Notes: generated by a model not told the origin, from the sequence alone. Shown: positions 13,649 through 18,092, counted from the first letter of the stretch. The stretch: 64,000 nucleotides of DNA from Candidatus Kaiserbacteria bacterium CG10_big_fil_rev_8_21_14_0_10_59_10 (GCA_002773285.1 PFBM01000021.1:14312-78311), one strand, 5' to 3'. A program made the numbers and translations.

Positions 13649-14419
13649 CTAGTGTGCGAGGGTAGCGTAGACCACCAAGCGATGGTCATAGGTGCCGAGG
13701 CTGCGAACGTACGACCCCGCGCAGGTTATTACGTGCAGGTGTTTTCCGCCGTCGTTCCTGTTGAAGAGCATATCGGACGTCAGATCCGACAGACGGTGTG
13801 TCTTGGTATGCGTCACTACATACCGAAGCCGGCTGCCGTCTTCAGCTGTCACATATATCTCGTCGCCGGCCTTGACGCGGTGCAGCTCGGAAAACGCGGC
13901 ATATACGTGCGCTGCGAGCACCGCACTGCCCGTGTTGCCGGGCAGGACCCCGTACTTATACCAACCGACGTTATCGGTGCGCCCATCGGGCACATCCATG
14001 TCTCCCTTGTCGTTAATGCCGACCTGCTGGATGGGTGAATTGAGGCCGATGGCCGGCATCTGGACACGTACGGGATATGTGGAAGAGGTAGCGGATAGGG
14101 GTGACGGGCTTGAAGGAACCGGTGTCGCACTCACACCCTCCTCTACTTTTCCTTCCGGAACTGCTGCTCGTGCGACAGATAACGCGACCTCGAGCGTGCC
14201 GTTGGGTGGCGACGAGGCCCCATCCAAAGGCGGCTCGTGTGACGGAATCTCAGCGATGAATGGGGGCAGGTCTAGGGCAATGCCGGAGCGAGCATCATTG
14301 GTAGGAAGCGTTGCGCTGCCGCTACCGGGGTCAAGCAGCGCTGCGTGCGCGCTTGCACCTAGAACGGCGACGCATCCGCATGCAGCTAACAATAGTACTG
14401 TACGCATGAACCGATGCAT
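13649..14419 (-). CDS. Sortase-family transpeptidase (class E/F-like), N-terminal signal/TM
   Basis: Catalytic His in LAAHVYAAF, TLxTC-type Cys motif HVITCAGSY, conserved Arg in RLVVYA. Confidence 0.8.
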   Translation of the reverse strand: MHRFMRTVLLLAACGCVAVLGASAHAALLDPGSGSATLPTNDARSGIALDLPPFIAEIPSHEPPLDGASSPPNGTLEVALSVARAAVPEGKVEEGVSATPVPSSPSPLSATSSTYPVRVQMPAIGLNSPIQQVGINDKGDMDVPDGRTDNVGWYKYGVLPGNTGSAVLAAHVYAAFSELHRVKAGDEIYVTAEDGSRLRYVVTHTKTHRLSDLTSDMLFNRNDGGKHLHVITCAGSYVRSLGTYDHRLVVYATLAH

Positions 14420-14593
14420 TCTATGGGCACGCCATGTTCATGTCTATATCATTCATGAATCTGAAGAGCTCATGAACCTATGCGGCTACAAAAGCAGCAA
14501 AAAGGGTTTGCACTACGCGTGCGAACTCATCGATTGTCCACACCGCCTCCGGACACCTGCAGCGCTGTCGCGCACGCCGAAGCGCGCTATACT

Positions 14594-14884
14594 ATGCTGG
14601 TGGAAGATTTCTTGAAAATGGATATCTTTTTCGTAGTGACGACACTCGTCGTTGCGGTCTTAGGGCTTTTTGCCGCGATCGCCCTTTACTACGTAGTGCG
14701 CATTCTTCGCAATGTCGAGCATATATCACACAATGTCGCCGAGGAGAGTGATAACCTCCGCGCCGATATTGCACAGCTGCGCGAGCGCGTGCGCGCCGAG
14801 GGTTTTCGATTGAAGCACGTCGCCGCATTCGTTCGCTCGCTGTTCGGACGAGCGGCGCGCGTGGCAAAAAAGAAGCGCAAGTAA
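14594..14884 (+). CDS. Small single-TM protein with a C-terminal coiled-coil and basic tail (hypothetical)
   Basis: MLVEDFLKMDIFFVVTTLVVAVLGLFAAIALYYVV TM then a charged helix. TATACT -10-like box just upstream. Confidence 0.45.
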   Translation: MLVEDFLKMDIFFVVTTLVVAVLGLFAAIALYYVVRILRNVEHISHNVAEESDNLRADIAQLRERVRAEGFRLKHVAAFVRSLFGRAARVAKKKRK

Positions 14885-14958
14885 TTAATGCGGCTTTCAT
14901 GAGTTGCGCGTAATGCTGTAGTATTCTGAGAGTTATTAGTAACAGTATTACATCACCT

Positions 14959-15378
14959 ATGGTTAAGAAGCGTACGCAAAAAGCGATGGGGATAGGAGCG
15001 GGTCTCGCAGCGGCAGGCGCCGCGGCCGCCGCAGGGTACTATTTTTACGTGAGCAAGGACGCGGCGAAGCATCGTCGCGTTGCCGCGAAGTGGGCGAGTG
15101 GGTTCAAGAAAGAAGTCGTCAAGCAGGCGAAGGCGGTTAAGAACGTGAATAAGACCGCCGTGCTTGCGGCGGTGGATAAGGCGACAGAAATGTATACCAG
15201 GGCACGCAAAACCGATAGAGCGGATATTATGCGCGCTGCCGAGGAGCTGAAGAAAAACTGGCAGCGCGTCGCGCAAGAAGTGCAGGCAGCTGCCGAGAAA
15301 GGGGCTCGTTCCGCTCGCAAAACGGCAAAGAAGACGGCAAAGCGAACTACACGCAAGAAAACCGCAAAGCGCCGGTAA
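14959..15378 (+). CDS. Lys/Ala-rich basic protein with N-terminal hydrophobic segment and KKTAK-type C-terminal repeats (histone H1/AlgP-like low complexity)
   Basis: GIGAGLAAAGAAAAAGYYFY hydrophobic stretch; C-terminus RKTAKKTAKRTTRKKTAKRR. Confidence 0.5.
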   Translation: MVKKRTQKAMGIGAGLAAAGAAAAAGYYFYVSKDAAKHRRVAAKWASGFKKEVVKQAKAVKNVNKTAVLAAVDKATEMYTRARKTDRADIMRAAEELKKNWQRVAQEVQAAAEKGARSARKTAKKTAKRTTRKKTAKRR

Positions 15379-15482
15379 TGCAGCGGCTTTATAGCTTGGC
15401 ACCTGCGTGCGTATGCTTTACACACGGGGGTGGCGCGGGGCTCTTCGGCCTGCGCCCTCCCGTGCATGCCGTGGCACATTGA

Positions 15483-15680
15483 TCAGTTGTCCGGCGTCGG
15501 CGAGACCGGTGGAACTGTTATGTTCGGTGCCTGCGTTTCCGGCAGGTTTACATCTATGTTCGTGCGCTCTTCCTGCTGCCCCCATAGTGGCCCTCGCAGG
15601 AACCACACGAGGGCTCCGACGACGATGATAATAAGCAACACTATGAGCACTGTGTTGACGCCTGAGTTGTCTCTGTCCAT
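15483..15680 (-). CDS. Small membrane protein (65 aa, single TM, Pro/Thr-rich tail)
   Basis: VLIVLLIIIVVGALVWFL TM helix; short ORF only. Confidence 0.35.
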   Translation of the reverse strand: MDRDNSGVNTVLIVLLIIIVVGALVWFLRGPLWGQQEERTNIDVNLPETQAPNITVPPVSPTPDN

Positions 15681-15902
15681 ATAAGAACCGCGTATCTATG
15701 ATAAATAAAAGCGGATCTGCCCCGTGCGGTGCGCGGAACCCCGCATAGTGATGGTTGCACTACAAACTGAAGACGCCATGAAGTGCGGGCGTGCGCCACA
15801 GCTGCATATATCCGCTCAATATACCTTGCACAACGCCTGCGCCTCGTTCATATTTTGCACATTAACGCGCACGCACAATGCGGTGCGTTATGCATACTTT
15901 CT

Positions 15903-16277
15903 ATGATAGAAAGCGAGCAGCGGGGTAGACGTACCATTGACCTGGATGAGATCCGGGCATGGGCGGAGGAGCGCGGGGGAGTCCCCGCGATAGCCGAGCG
16001 CGCCAAAGATGCAGAAGGCGGAGACCTGCTACGCATCGTCTTTGATGACACGGAGAAACACGTGCGGGAAGTTCCCTGGGAAGATTTCTTCGCCGTGTTC
16101 GAGGCAAATAAGCTTGTGTTTGTATACGACGCTCCCGTGGCAGGAGAGCCGTTGAGCTTGGAGCACGAATTTGCTGAGCGCACGACTGCCGACATTGAGA
16201 GTGCGGAACCACTGGAAGAGTACGGCGAAGACGATTGGCTTGATGAGGGAGAAGAAGAGCTCGAGGAGCTGCTTTGA
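15903..16277 (+). CDS. Acidic hypothetical protein (about 124 aa, Glu/Asp-rich C-terminus)
   Basis: Internal Met of ORF-track ORF 15783..16277; coding-like composition; no family assigned. Confidence 0.45.
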   Translation: MIESEQRGRRTIDLDEIRAWAEERGGVPAIAERAKDAEGGDLLRIVFDDTEKHVREVPWEDFFAVFEANKLVFVYDAPVAGEPLSLEHEFAERTTADIESAEPLEEYGEDDWLDEGEEELEELL

Positions 16278-16397
16278 GGGATTCACCCCTCTTTCACCGC
16301 GGGGCCGGCATACTTATCGTCAGGTCGATGTTACGAGCCAAACAAGATTTGAGCTAGTGACATGATTACAAACTCGTCACACGAACGTTAACCGCAG

Positions 16398-16655
16398 ATG
16401 ATCCGTATGACCATGCTCAAAAGAATTATAAGCGTGTCTGCTCCTCTTGCAGCCCTTGCAGCCGCGGGTATTGCGAATGCGCAAACAGCGACACAGACCG
16501 CGACCACAGCAACGCCTACACCCGGCATTCCGGAGACCGGCGTAGGCGGGGATATGGTGATGAATCTTGTCCTATTGGGCGCAGCAGCGCTCATAGCAGG
16601 CGCAGGCGCCATGTACCTGTATGTGACGCGCTCGCGCGGGGCAGACAGGGTGTAG
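16398..16655 (+). CDS. Mini sortase substrate: signal peptide + Thr/Ala/Pro-rich 15-aa stalk + IPETG sorting motif + TM + RSRG tail
   Basis: MIRMTMLKRIISVSAPLAALAAAGIANA signal; QTATQTATTATPTPG stalk; IPETG; GVGGDMVMNLVLLGAAALIAGAGAMYLYV hydrophobic; TRSRGADRV positive tail. Sits 32 nt upstream of a sortase gene. Confidence 0.6.
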   Translation: MIRMTMLKRIISVSAPLAALAAAGIANAQTATQTATTATPTPGIPETGVGGDMVMNLVLLGAAALIAGAGAMYLYVTRSRGADRV

Positions 16656-16686
16656 CCATGATCGTTAGCCCGGCGTCTGCGCGCGT

Positions 16687-17427
16687 ATGAGGATACGTAC
16701 GCACAGCAGAGAAGTGGCAGCGGCAGTTCTTGCCGCTGCCATTCTCGTAGGAGGCACGGCGGCGGTCCGCACGCTGCTGGTTCTGCCTGCCTCGGCGCTT
16801 CTCGTGCCGTACCCAACGGAAGCTCATGAGAAGAACGACGCGTTCGGGCTCATACGGTTTGTTACAGAGACAGCAACGCCGTTTAGCGGTGCGCAAGGCG
16901 CGTCGCGAGCGGAGAGACCGTTCCGGGCGCGGCCGGCTGCCTCAGAGAGGAATGGCGCATCGGAGGCGATGGGAACGGCGCAGCCCATGCGGCTCCAAAT
17001 ACCGCATATACGAGTCGACGCGCCGGTCGTGAGGGTCGGCATCAACGGGGTTGGCAATATGGCAACGCCATCGTCGTTCAGCGAGGTCGGCTGGTATCGG
17101 CATGGCCCGCGACCCGGCGAGCCGGGAAGCGCCGTCCTTGCCGGGCATGTAGACAATGCACTCGGGTTTCCCGGCGTCTTTAAGAGATTGGGTGAGTTGC
17201 GGGAAGGAGATGTGCTGTATATCACTGTGGCTGATGGCACTGCTCTGCGATTTGTTGTCGCCTCTGTGGAAACGCATCCATATAATGACGCACCTACGAA
17301 CGAGATTTTTTCGACGGGCGGCGCGCCGCGTGTCACGCTTATCACCTGTGCCGGCTCCTGGCTGCGCAGTGCCGGCACATACGATACGCGGCTCGTCGTC
17401 ACGGCATACTTGGCGGATGATAAGTAA
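16687..17427 (+). CDS. Sortase-family transpeptidase (paralog of 13649..14419)
   Basis: LAGHVDNA (His), TLITCAGSW (Cys), RLVVTA (Arg). N-terminal TM anchor. Confidence 0.8.
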   Translation: MRIRTHSREVAAAVLAAAILVGGTAAVRTLLVLPASALLVPYPTEAHEKNDAFGLIRFVTETATPFSGAQGASRAERPFRARPAASERNGASEAMGTAQPMRLQIPHIRVDAPVVRVGINGVGNMATPSSFSEVGWYRHGPRPGEPGSAVLAGHVDNALGFPGVFKRLGELREGDVLYITVADGTALRFVVASVETHPYNDAPTNEIFSTGGAPRVTLITCAGSWLRSAGTYDTRLVVTAYLADDK

Positions 17428-18092
17428 TGACGCATGCTGCATACATGACGATACGGTTTGTTGATAGAGCGGAGGCAGGGAAGGCACTGGCTGAAGCGCT
17501 TCTGGGTTATCGCAGCGATGCACCTGTCATCTACGCATTGCCCCGCGGCGGCGTAGCTGTTGGGTATGAGATCGCTCGGGCACTACGGGCGCCGCTTGAG
17601 ATCATTCTCACGCGGAAGATAGGGCACCCCCTCAACGCAGAATATGCAATATGCGCGATAGCGGAAGGTGGGGAGCCGCTCTGCAACGAATTGGAGCGCG
17701 CGGAGCTTGACGACGCGTGGCTTGCGGCGGCGTGCAAACGGGAGCGTGCGACACTCGCGCACAGAGCGGCACTGTACCGCGGCGATGGGGCGCGCATCTC
17801 AGCACGCGGTCGAGTCGCGATACTGGTGGACGACGGCATTGCGACGGGGCTTACGATGCGCTCGGCCATTGCGGTGTTGAGAGGTGAGGAACCCAAGAAG
17901 CTTATCGTTGCGGCGCCCGTGTGCCCCGCCGATGTCATTGCAGAGCTGCATGAGGCGGGAGCGGACGAAACAGTCATTTTGGAGAAAGGAAAGCCATATC
18001 TCGGTGCGGTCGGCGCATACTATCGGGAGTTCCCCCAGCTCACCGACAACGAGGTCATCGCCGCTCTCCAGGGGTCGAGGAAAACGGAATAA
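17427..18092 (+). CDS. Phosphoribosyltransferase-family protein (type I PRTase fold). ATG overlaps the sortase stop (ATGA).
   Basis: PRPP-binding loop ILVDDGIATGLTMRSAIAVL and N-terminal hood region. Confidence 0.7.
   Translation: MTHAAYMTIRFVDRAEAGKALAEALLGYRSDAPVIYALPRGGVAVGYEIARALRAPLEIILTRKIGHPLNAEYAICAIAEGGEPLCNELERAELDDAWLAAACKRERATLAHRAALYRGDGARISARGRVAILVDDGIATGLTMRSAIAVLRGEEPKKLIVAAPVCPADVIAELHEAGADETVILEKGKPYLGAVGAYYREFPQLTDNEVIAALQGSRKTE

Follow-up and report, generated by a model that had tools for sequence, protein, structure and literature searches.

A 3.8-kb stretch of the genome of Candidatus Kaiserbacteria bacterium CG10_big_fil_rev_8_21_14_0_10_59_10, a member of the CPR/Parcubacteria, contains two sortase genes with five small genes between them, which raises the question of whether this islet is a single cell-surface system or a set of genes that happen to be neighbors. 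The window analyzed here is the whole stretch of 64,000 nucleotides in which the islet lies, and an earlier note, made from its sequence, had suggested that the islet is a cell-surface module whose genes evolve together. All seven ORFs described in that note lie at the coordinates it gave, and an independent gene caller, applied to the same contig as deposited in ENA (L001), returned the same set in the order sortase of 256 aa (minus strand), 96, 139, 65 (minus strand), 124 and 85 aa, and sortase of 246 aa, followed by a phosphoribosyltransferase-family gene (PRTase) of 221 aa. The features, with the evidence for each, are as follows:

13649..14419, minus strand: sortase 1, a divergent class-F-like paralog (PF04203, class F profile)
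14594..14884, plus strand: p96, a single-TM helical protein, DUF948-like (adjacency to p139, UniRef name)
14959..15378, plus strand: p139, a basic, helical, YtxH-like protein, hydrophobic at its N-terminus (homolog family)
15483..15680, minus strand: p65, an orphan single-TM ORF (gene caller on L001, codon-position GC)
15903..16277, plus strand: p124, an acidic cytoplasmic protein of 124 aa (family search)
16398..16655, plus strand: mini sortase substrate of 85 aa (signal peptide, IPETG, hydrophobic segment, basic tail)
16687..17427, plus strand: sortase 2, class-F-like, the cognate sortase of the cassette described below (PF04203, class F profile, fold)
17427..18092, plus strand: PRTase (Pfam PF00156, E 2.3e-12)

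All ORFs of the islet, p65 included, match the codon-position GC pattern of the large ORFs of the window, and the alternative ORFs on the opposite strand within the islet do not match the coding pattern. Computed TM segments, charge, and pI agreed with the earlier descriptions of p96, p139, p65, and p124. The genes lie on alternating strands and therefore comprise at least five transcription units; those around the islet are housekeeping genes. A genomic island or mobile element was considered and rejected: only short, chance-level repeats were found at the flanks, no integrase or recombinase was among the called genes, a tRNA-Gln lies 2 kb off and is not adjacent to the islet, and GC content ranges from 0.52 to 0.64 along the region without a sharp boundary or marked compositional break.

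The two flanking genes are indeed divergent paralogous sortases, as had been proposed. Both match PF04203 (gathering cutoff 26.6 bits), sortase 1 with an e-value of 7e-21 (74.7 bits) and sortase 2 with an e-value of 1.6e-22 (80.0 bits), and they share 41% identity over 172 aa of the catalytic domain (BLASTP E 2e-38). Among the NCBIfam class profiles, class F (NF033748) scored highest for both proteins by a margin of more than 75 bits each, the next class reaching 29.7 bits for sortase 2, but the whole-protein scores (sortase 2, 141.3 bits; sortase 1, 110.6 bits) fall under the curated cutoff of 166 bits, so that neither qualifies for class F by score; the NCBI record for sortase 2 nevertheless reads class F sortase. 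Sortase 2 consists of a TM helix (residues 7–31), a disordered linker (approximately residues 40–99), and a catalytic beta-barrel (residues 100–242) with H154, C221 (in the motif TLITC), and R235. In its AF2 model, the TM helix and a confident beta-barrel are recovered (catalytic domain pLDDT ~97), and the top 50 matches of a Foldseek search of this model against the PDB are all sortases (E 3e-10 to 1e-8), structures of classes C, E, A, and D matching about equally well. In an alignment of 44 relatives, the catalytic His and Cys are invariant, whereas the catalytic Arg is found in 15, both window sortases included, and is replaced by Asn in the other 29. Judging from sequence and model, sortase 2 appears intact, with all catalytic residues kept, and it may have further substrates elsewhere in the genome.

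Sortase 1 has an N-terminal hydrophobic anchor, a Pro/Ser-rich linker, and a catalytic domain at approximately residues 112–256, with H171, C233 (in the motif VITC), and R247. It carries a 6-residue deletion after the catalytic His compared with 13 other aligned sortases (alignment A1), and its best relatives outside the window are only 36–45% identical. It looks like an old, diverged paralog, catalytically competent in appearance. No sorting-signal ORF was found upstream on its strand, and its substrate would be either the same IPETG peptide that precedes sortase 2 or the product of a gene in another part of the genome.

The 85-aa protein encoded upstream of sortase 2, labeled LPxTG domain-containing protein in UniRef, possesses the signal peptide, LPXTG-type pentapeptide, hydrophobic segment, and positively charged tail of a sortase substrate. 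The signal peptide covers residues 1–28 (nt 16398–16481) and is predicted to be cut after ANA (MIRMTMLKRIISVSAPLAALAAAGIANA|Q), which would leave the 19-aa mature peptide QTATQTATTATPTPGIPET (nt 16482–16538), so that after both cleavages approximately 19 residues, Thr, Ala, Gln, and Pro, are predicted to remain. The IPETG pentapeptide (nt 16527–16541) is embedded in the extended signal TPG-IPETG-VGG-D and is followed by 28 mostly hydrophobic residues and the R-rich tail TRSRGADRV (nt 16542–16652). This signal agrees at every constrained position with the consensus P-G-[LIVAF]-P-x-T-G-[AV]-G-G-[NDE], derived from 15 CPR substrates. The curated NCBIfam sorting-signal models (TIGR01167 LPXTG_anchor or variants) produced no match to the protein at E ≤ 1, and its relatives score 14.6–15.9 bits against a model cutoff of 15.9. 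[quoted passage not shown]

The pairing of the IPETG protein, as substrate, with the plus-strand sortase is kept in relatives. A substrate gene lies directly upstream of the related sortase, on the same strand, in every one of the 14 other distinct CPR loci for which upstream sequence is available (L002/L006, L003/L008, L005, L007, L009–L015, L024, L041, and L046/L047), L055 being the exception, and in 11 of 11 Bacillaceae loci; these counts cover the CPR and Bacillaceae loci and leave out 17 actinobacterial ones. With a strict filter, 24 loci gave a match, each with exactly one sorting-signal ORF per ~7–17 kb, and the substrates of L024 and L046/L047 were found by inspection, outside these matches. 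At its C-terminal end, the upstream gene product has the motif PG-xPxTG-xGG followed by a TM segment and a basic tail. The spacer to the sortase gene, 31 nt in the window, ranges from an 11-nt overlap to 75 nt in relatives in which the limits of the two ORFs are defined. Of the 9 cassette substrates detected by a heuristic, 7 are predicted to start with Gln in their mature form, and the same was seen by eye for L012 and L013. Substrates at this position in relatives are 152 to at least 560 aa long and include such domains as repeats with Cys and regions resembling DUF4397 or Ig folds; comparable mini-substrates are found ahead of two other sortases of Parcubacteria, in L005 (77 aa, 48% identical to the window protein) and L013 (94 aa or less), and the L005 sortase is the closest relative of sortase 2 (56% identity). 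On these sequence comparisons, the substrate gene and sortase 2 (16398–17427) are a conserved two-gene cassette.

The remaining genes do not accompany it. A tblastn search with p96, p139, p65, p124, and the PRTase against 51 other related-sortase loci found none of them, and the synteny comparison that the earlier note had proposed showed the islet genes to be unrelated and scattered in relatives, the very outcome it had named as speaking against its reading. The proposal that the islet evolves as one cell-surface module is accordingly not sustained.

p96 (one TM segment, helical tail, pI 10.4) and p139 (hydrophobic N-terminus, KKTAK-type tail, pI 11.0, 38 K+R) belong together. In four related loci (L049–L052), a p96 homolog of 87–91 aa (32–51% identity, E 2e-10 to 3e-25) lies 23–33 nt upstream of a p139 homolog, so that the adjacency is kept in 4 of 4 related genomes inspected, with differing neighbors and with no sortase within 6 kb of the pair in any. 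Pfam scans of p96, DUF948 (PF06103) included, gave no significant match, and an identical sequence is named DUF948 domain-containing protein in UniRef. For p139, 137 homologs were found at E ≤ 0.01; among the 120 matches listed, identities are 36–57% and all taxon-named ones come from the Kaiserbacteria, Paceibacterota, Minisyncoccota, or Patescibacteria group. The Pfam YtxH model (PF12732) matches 16 of 33 members of the p139 family (best E 2.9e-6) and gives p139 itself a score of only 8.3 bits (E 4.2), and DUF948 matches 2 of 33 relatives. In Bacillus subtilis, ytxG and ytxH of the general stress operon encode membrane-anchored helical proteins of the DUF948 (PF06103) and YtxH (PF12732) types. 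p96 and p139 resemble these in being adjacent and small and in combining a hydrophobic segment at the N-terminus with a long charged helix, but neither is significant against the Pfam models and the p139 family is Parcubacteria-specific among the matches listed. By sequence, the two are a membrane-anchored DUF948/YtxH-like pair outside the sortase system.

The acidic protein p124 (pI 4.1, 38 D+E, no signal peptide) is composed of an N-terminal domain of ~80 aa, which belongs to a large uncharacterized family (903 cluster representatives at E ≤ 1e-3), and a disordered acidic tail. The conserved core of the family reads T.DHD.IR.WAE.RGG.PA...LRIDF...ISW.EFF..F...LAFLYQ; among 34 members scanned, no Pfam family occurred in more than two and no NCBIfam model matched any, and a fold search with the AF2 model of p124 (core pLDDT ~90) found no match in the PDB. 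The acidic and basic proteins of the islet had been put forward as a candidate interacting pair, but p139 is paired with p96 where no sortase is present and p124 comes from a large family and is cytoplasmic, so that on genomic grounds they are not such a pair. p65 is probably a real gene encoding an orphan membrane peptide: its codon-position GC (0.61/0.39/0.68) follows the coding pattern, unlike that of the opposite-strand ORF at 15430–15684. It had no tblastn match across the fetched loci, and its sole family match, Flp1_like, was sub-threshold (18.2 bits against a cutoff of 33.5).

Downstream, sortase 2 and the PRTase do overlap, as had been noted, although by one shared base (TAATG, position 17427) rather than by the four bases of ATGA. 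The start of the PRTase is uncertain, with 221 aa from 17427 compared with 215 aa (JGI) and 213 aa (NCBI), and translation from the in-frame ATG at 17445 would account for the 215-aa version. Co-transcription of the two genes, suggested previously, is plausible given a 1-nt overlap or a short gap. The PRTase was not found near any of the related sortases screened, and the adjacency is not conserved; the PRTase is a neighbor of the cassette and not a member of it.

Taken together, the region quite probably consists of four or more independent genetic units that lie side by side on a Kaiserbacteria chromosome by chance, of which the cassette is the sole surface module and none of p96, p139, p124, and p65 is part of the sortase system. 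Because the cassette alone is conserved as a unit and the other genes are unrelated neighbors, the region is mostly ordinary, its one unusual feature being the small size of the sortase substrate. From established sortase chemistry, we infer how this substrate would be exported, cleaved, and attached, and what the anchored peptide might do: the 85-aa precursor would be exported by Sec, cut by signal peptidase after ANA, and retained in the membrane by its C-terminal hydrophobic segment and basic tail. Sortase 2 (Cys221, His154, Arg235) would then cleave at IPET|G, hold the remaining 19 residues, rich in Thr, Ala, Gln, and Pro, as a thioester intermediate, and pass them to an amine nucleophile, most likely the peptidoglycan precursor. 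Instead of a folded surface protein, the wall would bear a short peptide that is probably disordered and may be glycosylated.

That the two sortases and all five small proteins are one co-evolving surface module, with the charged proteins as accessory or interacting partners, is extremely improbable. The genes are clustered, p96, p139, and p65 have membrane segments, and L002/L006 also has two sortases around a substrate; however, in that locus nothing but the substrate lies between the sortases, p96, p139, p65, and p124 are absent near all related sortases screened, the p96–p139 pair stands apart from sortases in all four relatives, p124 is cytoplasmic and from a very large family, and the strands alternate. 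L002/L006 also makes it possible that a two-sortase system acts on one substrate, and in the pili of Gram-positive bacteria a class C sortase and a housekeeping sortase work in sequence. The corresponding scheme for the window, with one sortase polymerizing the IPETG peptide and the other attaching the polymer to the wall, could draw on the two paralogs within 3 kb of a single substrate, on the two adjacent sortases of the related locus L055, on the class C pilin sortases among the best PDB fold and profile matches, and on the predicted N-terminal Gln, which could in principle provide an amine. We nonetheless consider it very unlikely: the mature peptide lacks both Lys and a pilin motif and could not accommodate a domain in its length, structures of other sortase classes fit about as well, none of the other loci examined has a second sortase, sortase 1 and the extra sortase of L002 (38–39% identity, below that between sortases 1 and 2) are not orthologous, and between sortase 1 and the substrate lie four unrelated genes, not all on one strand. 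A sortase-assembled pilus cluster was likewise rejected, as neither the pilin-motif Lys nor folded Ig-like pilin domains are present.

The mini-substrate could also be what is left, without function, of a larger surface protein after loss of the passenger domain, with sortase 2 serving other substrates or itself being lost. CPR genomes are reductive, same-position substrates in relatives are larger and carry real domains, the mature part in the window is a mere Thr/Pro-rich linker of the type that precedes sorting signals, and a 19-residue cargo has no obvious function, so that the gene could be decaying. Yet the signal peptide, AxA site, full extended sorting signal, TM segment, and basic tail are all intact, as is sortase 2, and three or more lineages, with sortases that share no more than 48–56% identity, have retained mini-versions, which argues for selection; decay is thus unlikely, and a small functional substrate with its own sortase is the reading we prefer.

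Dedicated sortase-substrate pairs include srtB-isdC of Staphylococcus aureus, the class D sortase of Bacillus anthracis with BasH/BasI, and the class GN "marine" sortase with its vWA target (TIGR03784). The window cassette resembles these in that a specialized sortase lies beside one or few substrates whose signal variant is unlike the housekeeping one, but it differs in sortase class and motif and in a substrate that can be as small as ~20 mature residues with no folded domain. The class F prototype is SrtF of Cutibacterium/Propionibacterium acnes (Di Girolamo et al. 2019, as cited in PMC8225981 and PMC13251363), and the physiological role of class F enzymes is described as still unknown (PMC13251363). 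The window sortases share with this class the N-terminal anchor, the linker, and the C-terminal barrel with His and the TLxTC Cys, and the neighboring substrate bears an LPXTG-type motif; in contrast, they score below the class cutoff (141 and 111 bits against 166), belong to a CPR bacterium, keep the canonical Arg that is Asn in most relatives, and include in their cassette a dedicated upstream substrate with the extended PG-xPxTG-xGG signal. A domain-less, disordered sortase substrate is also known in SspA of Actinoplanes missouriensis, a spore-wall protein of 191 aa that is intrinsically disordered and attached by a sortase, and whose anchoring has a phenotype (PMC13293333). Its disordered mature part exceeds 100 residues and its class E sortase is encoded elsewhere in the genome (PMC13293333), whereas the window peptide, at ~19 residues, has a class-F-like sortase as its partner. 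SspA provides a precedent that a substrate lacking a folded passenger can be functional.

The islet is composite, and the cassette formed by the mini-substrate gene and the sortase that follows it is its sole functional surface module. Its genes, with the phosphoribosyltransferase-type (PRTase) gene that adjoins them, are as follows.

Genes of the islet and the adjoining PRTase gene (window positions)
13649-14419, minus strand: sortase 1
14594-14884, plus strand: p96
14959-15378, plus strand: p139
15483-15680, minus strand: p65
15903-16277, plus strand: p124
16398-16655, plus strand: mini-substrate, 85 aa, with IPETG
16687-17427, plus strand: sortase 2
17427-18092, plus strand: PRTase

All the islet ORFs were present in an ORF listing of the window where the earlier note had placed them, and gene calling on the same DNA in an ENA contig (L001; 100% identical, 0 mismatches) gave the same set: a sortase of 256 aa (minus strand), proteins of 96, 139, 65 (minus strand), 124 and 85 aa, a sortase of 246 aa and a PRTase of 221 aa. 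GC content at the three codon positions was about 0.6–0.7 (GC1), 0.4–0.5 (GC2) and 0.6–0.7 (GC3) in the large ORFs of the window and in every islet ORF, including p65, and this pattern of the large ORFs was absent from long ORFs on the opposite strand.

More than half of CPR genomes encode sortases (PMC6744442). Both window proteins matched the Pfam Sortase model (sortase 1, 74.7 bits; sortase 2, 80.0 bits; cutoff 26.6), and class F was the best NCBIfam class for both (110.6 and 141.3 bits, respectively; next class at most 33 bits), with neither reaching the curated class F cutoff of 166 bits. Sortase 2 matches, at 100% identity, a protein that NCBI names “class F sortase,” from the CPR/Parcubacteria genome of Candidatus Kaiserbacteria bacterium CG10_big_fil_rev_8_21_14_0_10_59_10. 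In an alignment of class-F-like sortases (A7), the catalytic His and the Cys of the TLxTC motif are invariant in 44 relatives, and the canonical Arg position, which follows the Cys by 14 residues, holds Asn in 29 of the 44 and Arg in 15; both window proteins carry Arg (R235 in sortase 2, R247 in sortase 1). Among the source-named sequences of this alignment, the Asn forms are mostly actinobacterial and the Arg forms include CPR, Planococcus and Thermomicrobium. The Arg/Asn split may explain why the CPR enzymes score below the NCBIfam cutoff. In the AlphaFold model of sortase 2, a disordered linker separates a transmembrane helix (residues 7–31) from a beta-barrel (pLDDT about 97), and the top matches in a fold search of the PDB were all sortases, of class C, E, A or D (E about 3e-10, 18–27% identity). 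Sequence searches found no close solved relative, and single-sequence PDB searches with both sortases came back empty.

The assignment of the IPETG protein to the plus-strand sortase, proposed in the earlier note, is borne out by the surroundings of related sortases, which were drawn from assemblies, 40 species-representative genomes (searched with a 3-sequence alignment) and metagenomes. In each of the 14 other distinct CPR loci that have upstream sequence (L055, a locus with two adjacent sortases, excepted), including those from Saccharibacteria, Nomurabacteria, Paceibacterota and Adlerbacteria, the sortase is immediately preceded on its own strand by an ORF ending in xPxTG, a transmembrane segment and a basic tail, and a gene of the same kind occupies this position in 11 of 11 Bacillaceae loci. 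Under a strict filter, each of the 24 loci with a match contained exactly one substrate ORF in its approximately 7–17 kb; the substrates of L024 and L046/L047 were found by inspection, outside this filter. The spacing between substrate and sortase ranges from an 11-nt overlap to 75 nt, and is 31 nt in the window. The sorting signals of the CPR substrates follow an extended consensus, P-G-[LIVAF]-P-x-T-G-[AV]-G-G-[NDE], which the window sequence TPG-IPETG-VGG-D fits at all constrained positions. No xPxTG signal was found in 17 actinobacterial sortase loci, where the GC content makes the simple ORF picker used here unreliable. Dedicated pairs of a sortase and its substrate are in themselves known. 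We found nothing in the searchable literature on CPR sortase substrates or on an upstream-substrate rule for class-F-like enzymes, for which the substrate-then-sortase order, together with the PG-xPxTG-xGG signal, provides a simple rule to name the cognate substrate of each enzyme.

The passengers of these cassettes are mutually unrelated, comprising Cys-containing repeats, DUF4397-like domains and Ig-like repeats, and range from 152 to at least 560 aa, alongside three minimal substrates, in the window (85 aa), L005 (77 aa) and L013 (at most 94 aa). The very small size of the substrate is the sole unusual feature of the window locus. Five CPR substrates (L007, L008, L009, L010, L014) consist of a repeat some 25 aa long, G-C-x-S-x-x-G-[YF]-S-x-x-T-G-x-x-C-x-G, present in 3–7 copies, and a similar Cys pair repeat is found in a neighbouring secreted protein of L047 (6671-7990). 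In Bacillaceae (L016-L020, L023, L028, L029, L036), the upstream substrate is DUF4397-like and bears an MPxTG-MGG signal, scoring 28.9 bits against the NCBIfam model NF058571, “GVDTG sorting domain” (cutoff 29). In L053, which has a high GC content, the gene ahead of the sortase encodes a DUF4397 protein whose C-terminus is of the VPSGEG type. The searchable literature yielded no paper that links a sortase with DUF4397.

Cassette substrates can also be compared at their predicted mature N-termini.

Cassette substrate genes bearing on the predicted N-terminal Gln (positions in the window or in the respective locus)
Window 16398-16655, plus strand: mini-substrate gene
L002 7517-7975: substrate gene
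L005 7692-7925: substrate gene
L007 5032-5694: substrate gene
L008 4443-4940: substrate gene
L009 1770-2264: substrate gene
L010 5131-5862: substrate gene
L012 4799-5929: substrate gene
L013 206-490: substrate gene

Gln is the predicted first residue of the mature protein in 7 of 9 substrates detected by the heuristic, and by eye in those of L012 and L013; among the other ORFs of the same loci that are predicted to bear a signal or to be membrane-anchored, it is so in 3 of 17. These counts are small, come from sites assigned by a crude AxA rule and include several substrates homologous to each other and thus phylogenetically non-independent. Pyroglutamate capping, or some role for the N-terminus, might account for this Gln.

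The mini-substrate itself, already labelled as LPxTG-bearing by UniRef, consists of a Sec signal peptide ending in AGIANA and followed by Gln, the segment QTATQTATTATPTPG, IPETG (nt 16527-16541), VGGD, a hydrophobic stretch and the tail TRSRGADRV. As the earlier note had stated, it is alone in having an LPXTG-type C-terminus in the 64-kb window, in any frame and with a loose motif included. By the established sortase mechanism, the precursor would be exported, cut by signal peptidase after ANA and kept in the membrane by its C-terminal anchor until it is cleaved by sortase 2 at the Thr-Gly bond; the resulting peptide, predicted to comprise 19 residues (1.9 kDa), rich in Thr, Ala, Gln and Pro and without Lys, would then be passed to an amine, most likely on a peptidoglycan precursor. 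Such a short product might be a tolerated remnant rather than a functional wall decoration. The closest relative of sortase 2 is the L005 sortase (56% identity), and the mini-substrates of the two loci are 48% identical over their full length; therefore, the mini form was inherited with the sortase and did not arise by recent decay. Retention of the mini-substrate with its sortase across 50–56% protein identity favours a function of the peptide over the remnant. SspA, a disordered sortase substrate, would be a precedent for a functional decoration (PMC13293333). A pilus cluster was rejected, since both a Lys and a pilin domain are lacking.

As of 2026, the physiological function of class F sortases was described as unknown (PMC13251363). 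We regard as improbable a wider reading in which the class-F-like sortases of CPR, and perhaps of Bacillaceae, would be one-substrate enzymes with a cargo reducible to some 20 residues rich in Thr, the product being either a peptide decoration of the wall, possibly O-glycosylated, or a head-to-tail polymer joined via the N-terminal Gln that these substrates conserve, the second sortase possibly being a partner. If true, either product would be an envelope modification undescribed for any bacterium and the first physiological role for class F sortases. The mini-substrates offer a minimal test peptide that can be synthesised.

Sortase 1 stands apart from this arrangement. No sorting-signal ORF lies upstream of it on the same strand, and a stretch of six residues that directly follows the catalytic His in 13 other aligned sortases is missing from it. 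Sortase 1 is 41% identical to sortase 2 over 172 residues (E 2e-38), and the two genes have no repeat in common at the DNA level; from both observations, the duplication is old. Its best outside relatives, at 36–45% identity, each have their own upstream substrate, and a metagenome scan yielded no ortholog, only three distant loci (36% identity). Among the loci examined, a second sortase beside a cassette was found in one Saccharibacteria-like lineage only, in the order sortase-substrate-sortase (L002/L006) or as two adjacent sortases (L055), and the extra sortase of this lineage is not orthologous to sortase 1.

The remaining islet genes do not accompany related sortases. The earlier note had proposed that the islet evolves as one surface module, and the synteny comparison speaks against this: tblastn queries with p96, p139, p65, p124, the PRTase and two left-flank genes gave 0 matches in 51 other loci with a related sortase, and p96 and p139 form a pair that recurs elsewhere.

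p96-p139 pairs (positions in the window or in the respective relative)
Window 14594-15378, plus strand: p96-p139 pair
L049 5693-6399: p96-p139 pair
L050 5695-6399: p96-p139 pair
L051 5714-6489: p96-p139 pair
L052 5692-6417: p96-p139 pair

In 4 of 4 relatives with long contigs inspected (two of them Kaiserbacteria, the rest other Patescibacteria), a p96 homolog of 87–91 aa, 32–51% identical to the window p96, lies 23–33 nt ahead of the p139 homolog. The neighbours of the pair vary among these genomes and are unlike the window's, and within 6 kb of it the four relatives have neither a sortase or substrate nor p65 or p124; p96 and p139 are thus a separate unit. p139 has 137 homologs (E ≤ 0.01), of which the 120 listed are at 36–57% identity; those among the 120 for which a source taxon is named all come from Kaiserbacteria, Paceibacterota, Minisyncoccota or the Patescibacteria group. 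Pfam YtxH was matched by 16 of 33 members of the p139 family, with no significant match for the window p139, and UniRef names p96 a DUF948 protein; the window p96 and p139 escape both Pfam models.

For p124, a word-indexed search returned one homolog only, and an exhaustive HMMER search returned 903 representatives of 50%-identity clusters (E ≤ 1e-3). They share a conserved core of about 75 aa, T.DHD.IR.WAE.RGG.PA...LRIDF...ISW.EFF..F...LAFLYQ, sometimes tandem-duplicated within proteins of 250–480 aa. When 34 members were scanned, no Pfam family scored in more than 2 of them, NCBIfam gave 0 matches, and the confident AF2 core had no fold match in the PDB. The family has neither a signal peptide nor a transmembrane segment, and p124 is predicted to be a cytoplasmic protein, not a surface component. 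No relatives of p65 were detectable in anything searchable. Its sub-threshold match to Flp1_like was the only one, and a Flp-type pilin was rejected, given 18 bits (cutoff 33.5) and no G/xxxxEY processing site. As a caution for annotation, a group of small ORFs, charged or membrane-type, that two paralogs enclose resembled a module, and comparison with relatives resolved them into unrelated units.

At the downstream edge, the junction that the earlier note read as an ATGA overlap is TAATG, the stop TAA of sortase 2 (17425-17427) overlapping the ATG at 17427 by one base. The start of the PRTase varies by source, with 221 aa from 17427, 215 aa in JGI, as would result from an in-frame ATG at 17445, and 213 aa in NCBI. 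The co-transcription of the two genes suggested earlier is plausible with either start, and their adjacency is not conserved in the related-sortase loci by tblastn. Scans for promoters and terminators were uninformative (3 promoter-like sites versus 2.5 expected by chance; 3 terminator-like sites versus 4.3 expected), and Rfam identified two tRNAs and nothing else. No repeats, recombinase or sharp compositional break were found around the islet, and a mobile island was rejected on these grounds. The islet is surrounded by housekeeping genes, including those for TruB, DoxX, GDH, OtsA/OtsB, tRNA synthetases, UvrABC and DnaB. Among these, OtsA/OtsB (trehalose-6-phosphate synthase/phosphatase) adjoin glutamate dehydrogenase in this reduced CPR genome (19938-23107 and 18176-19453).
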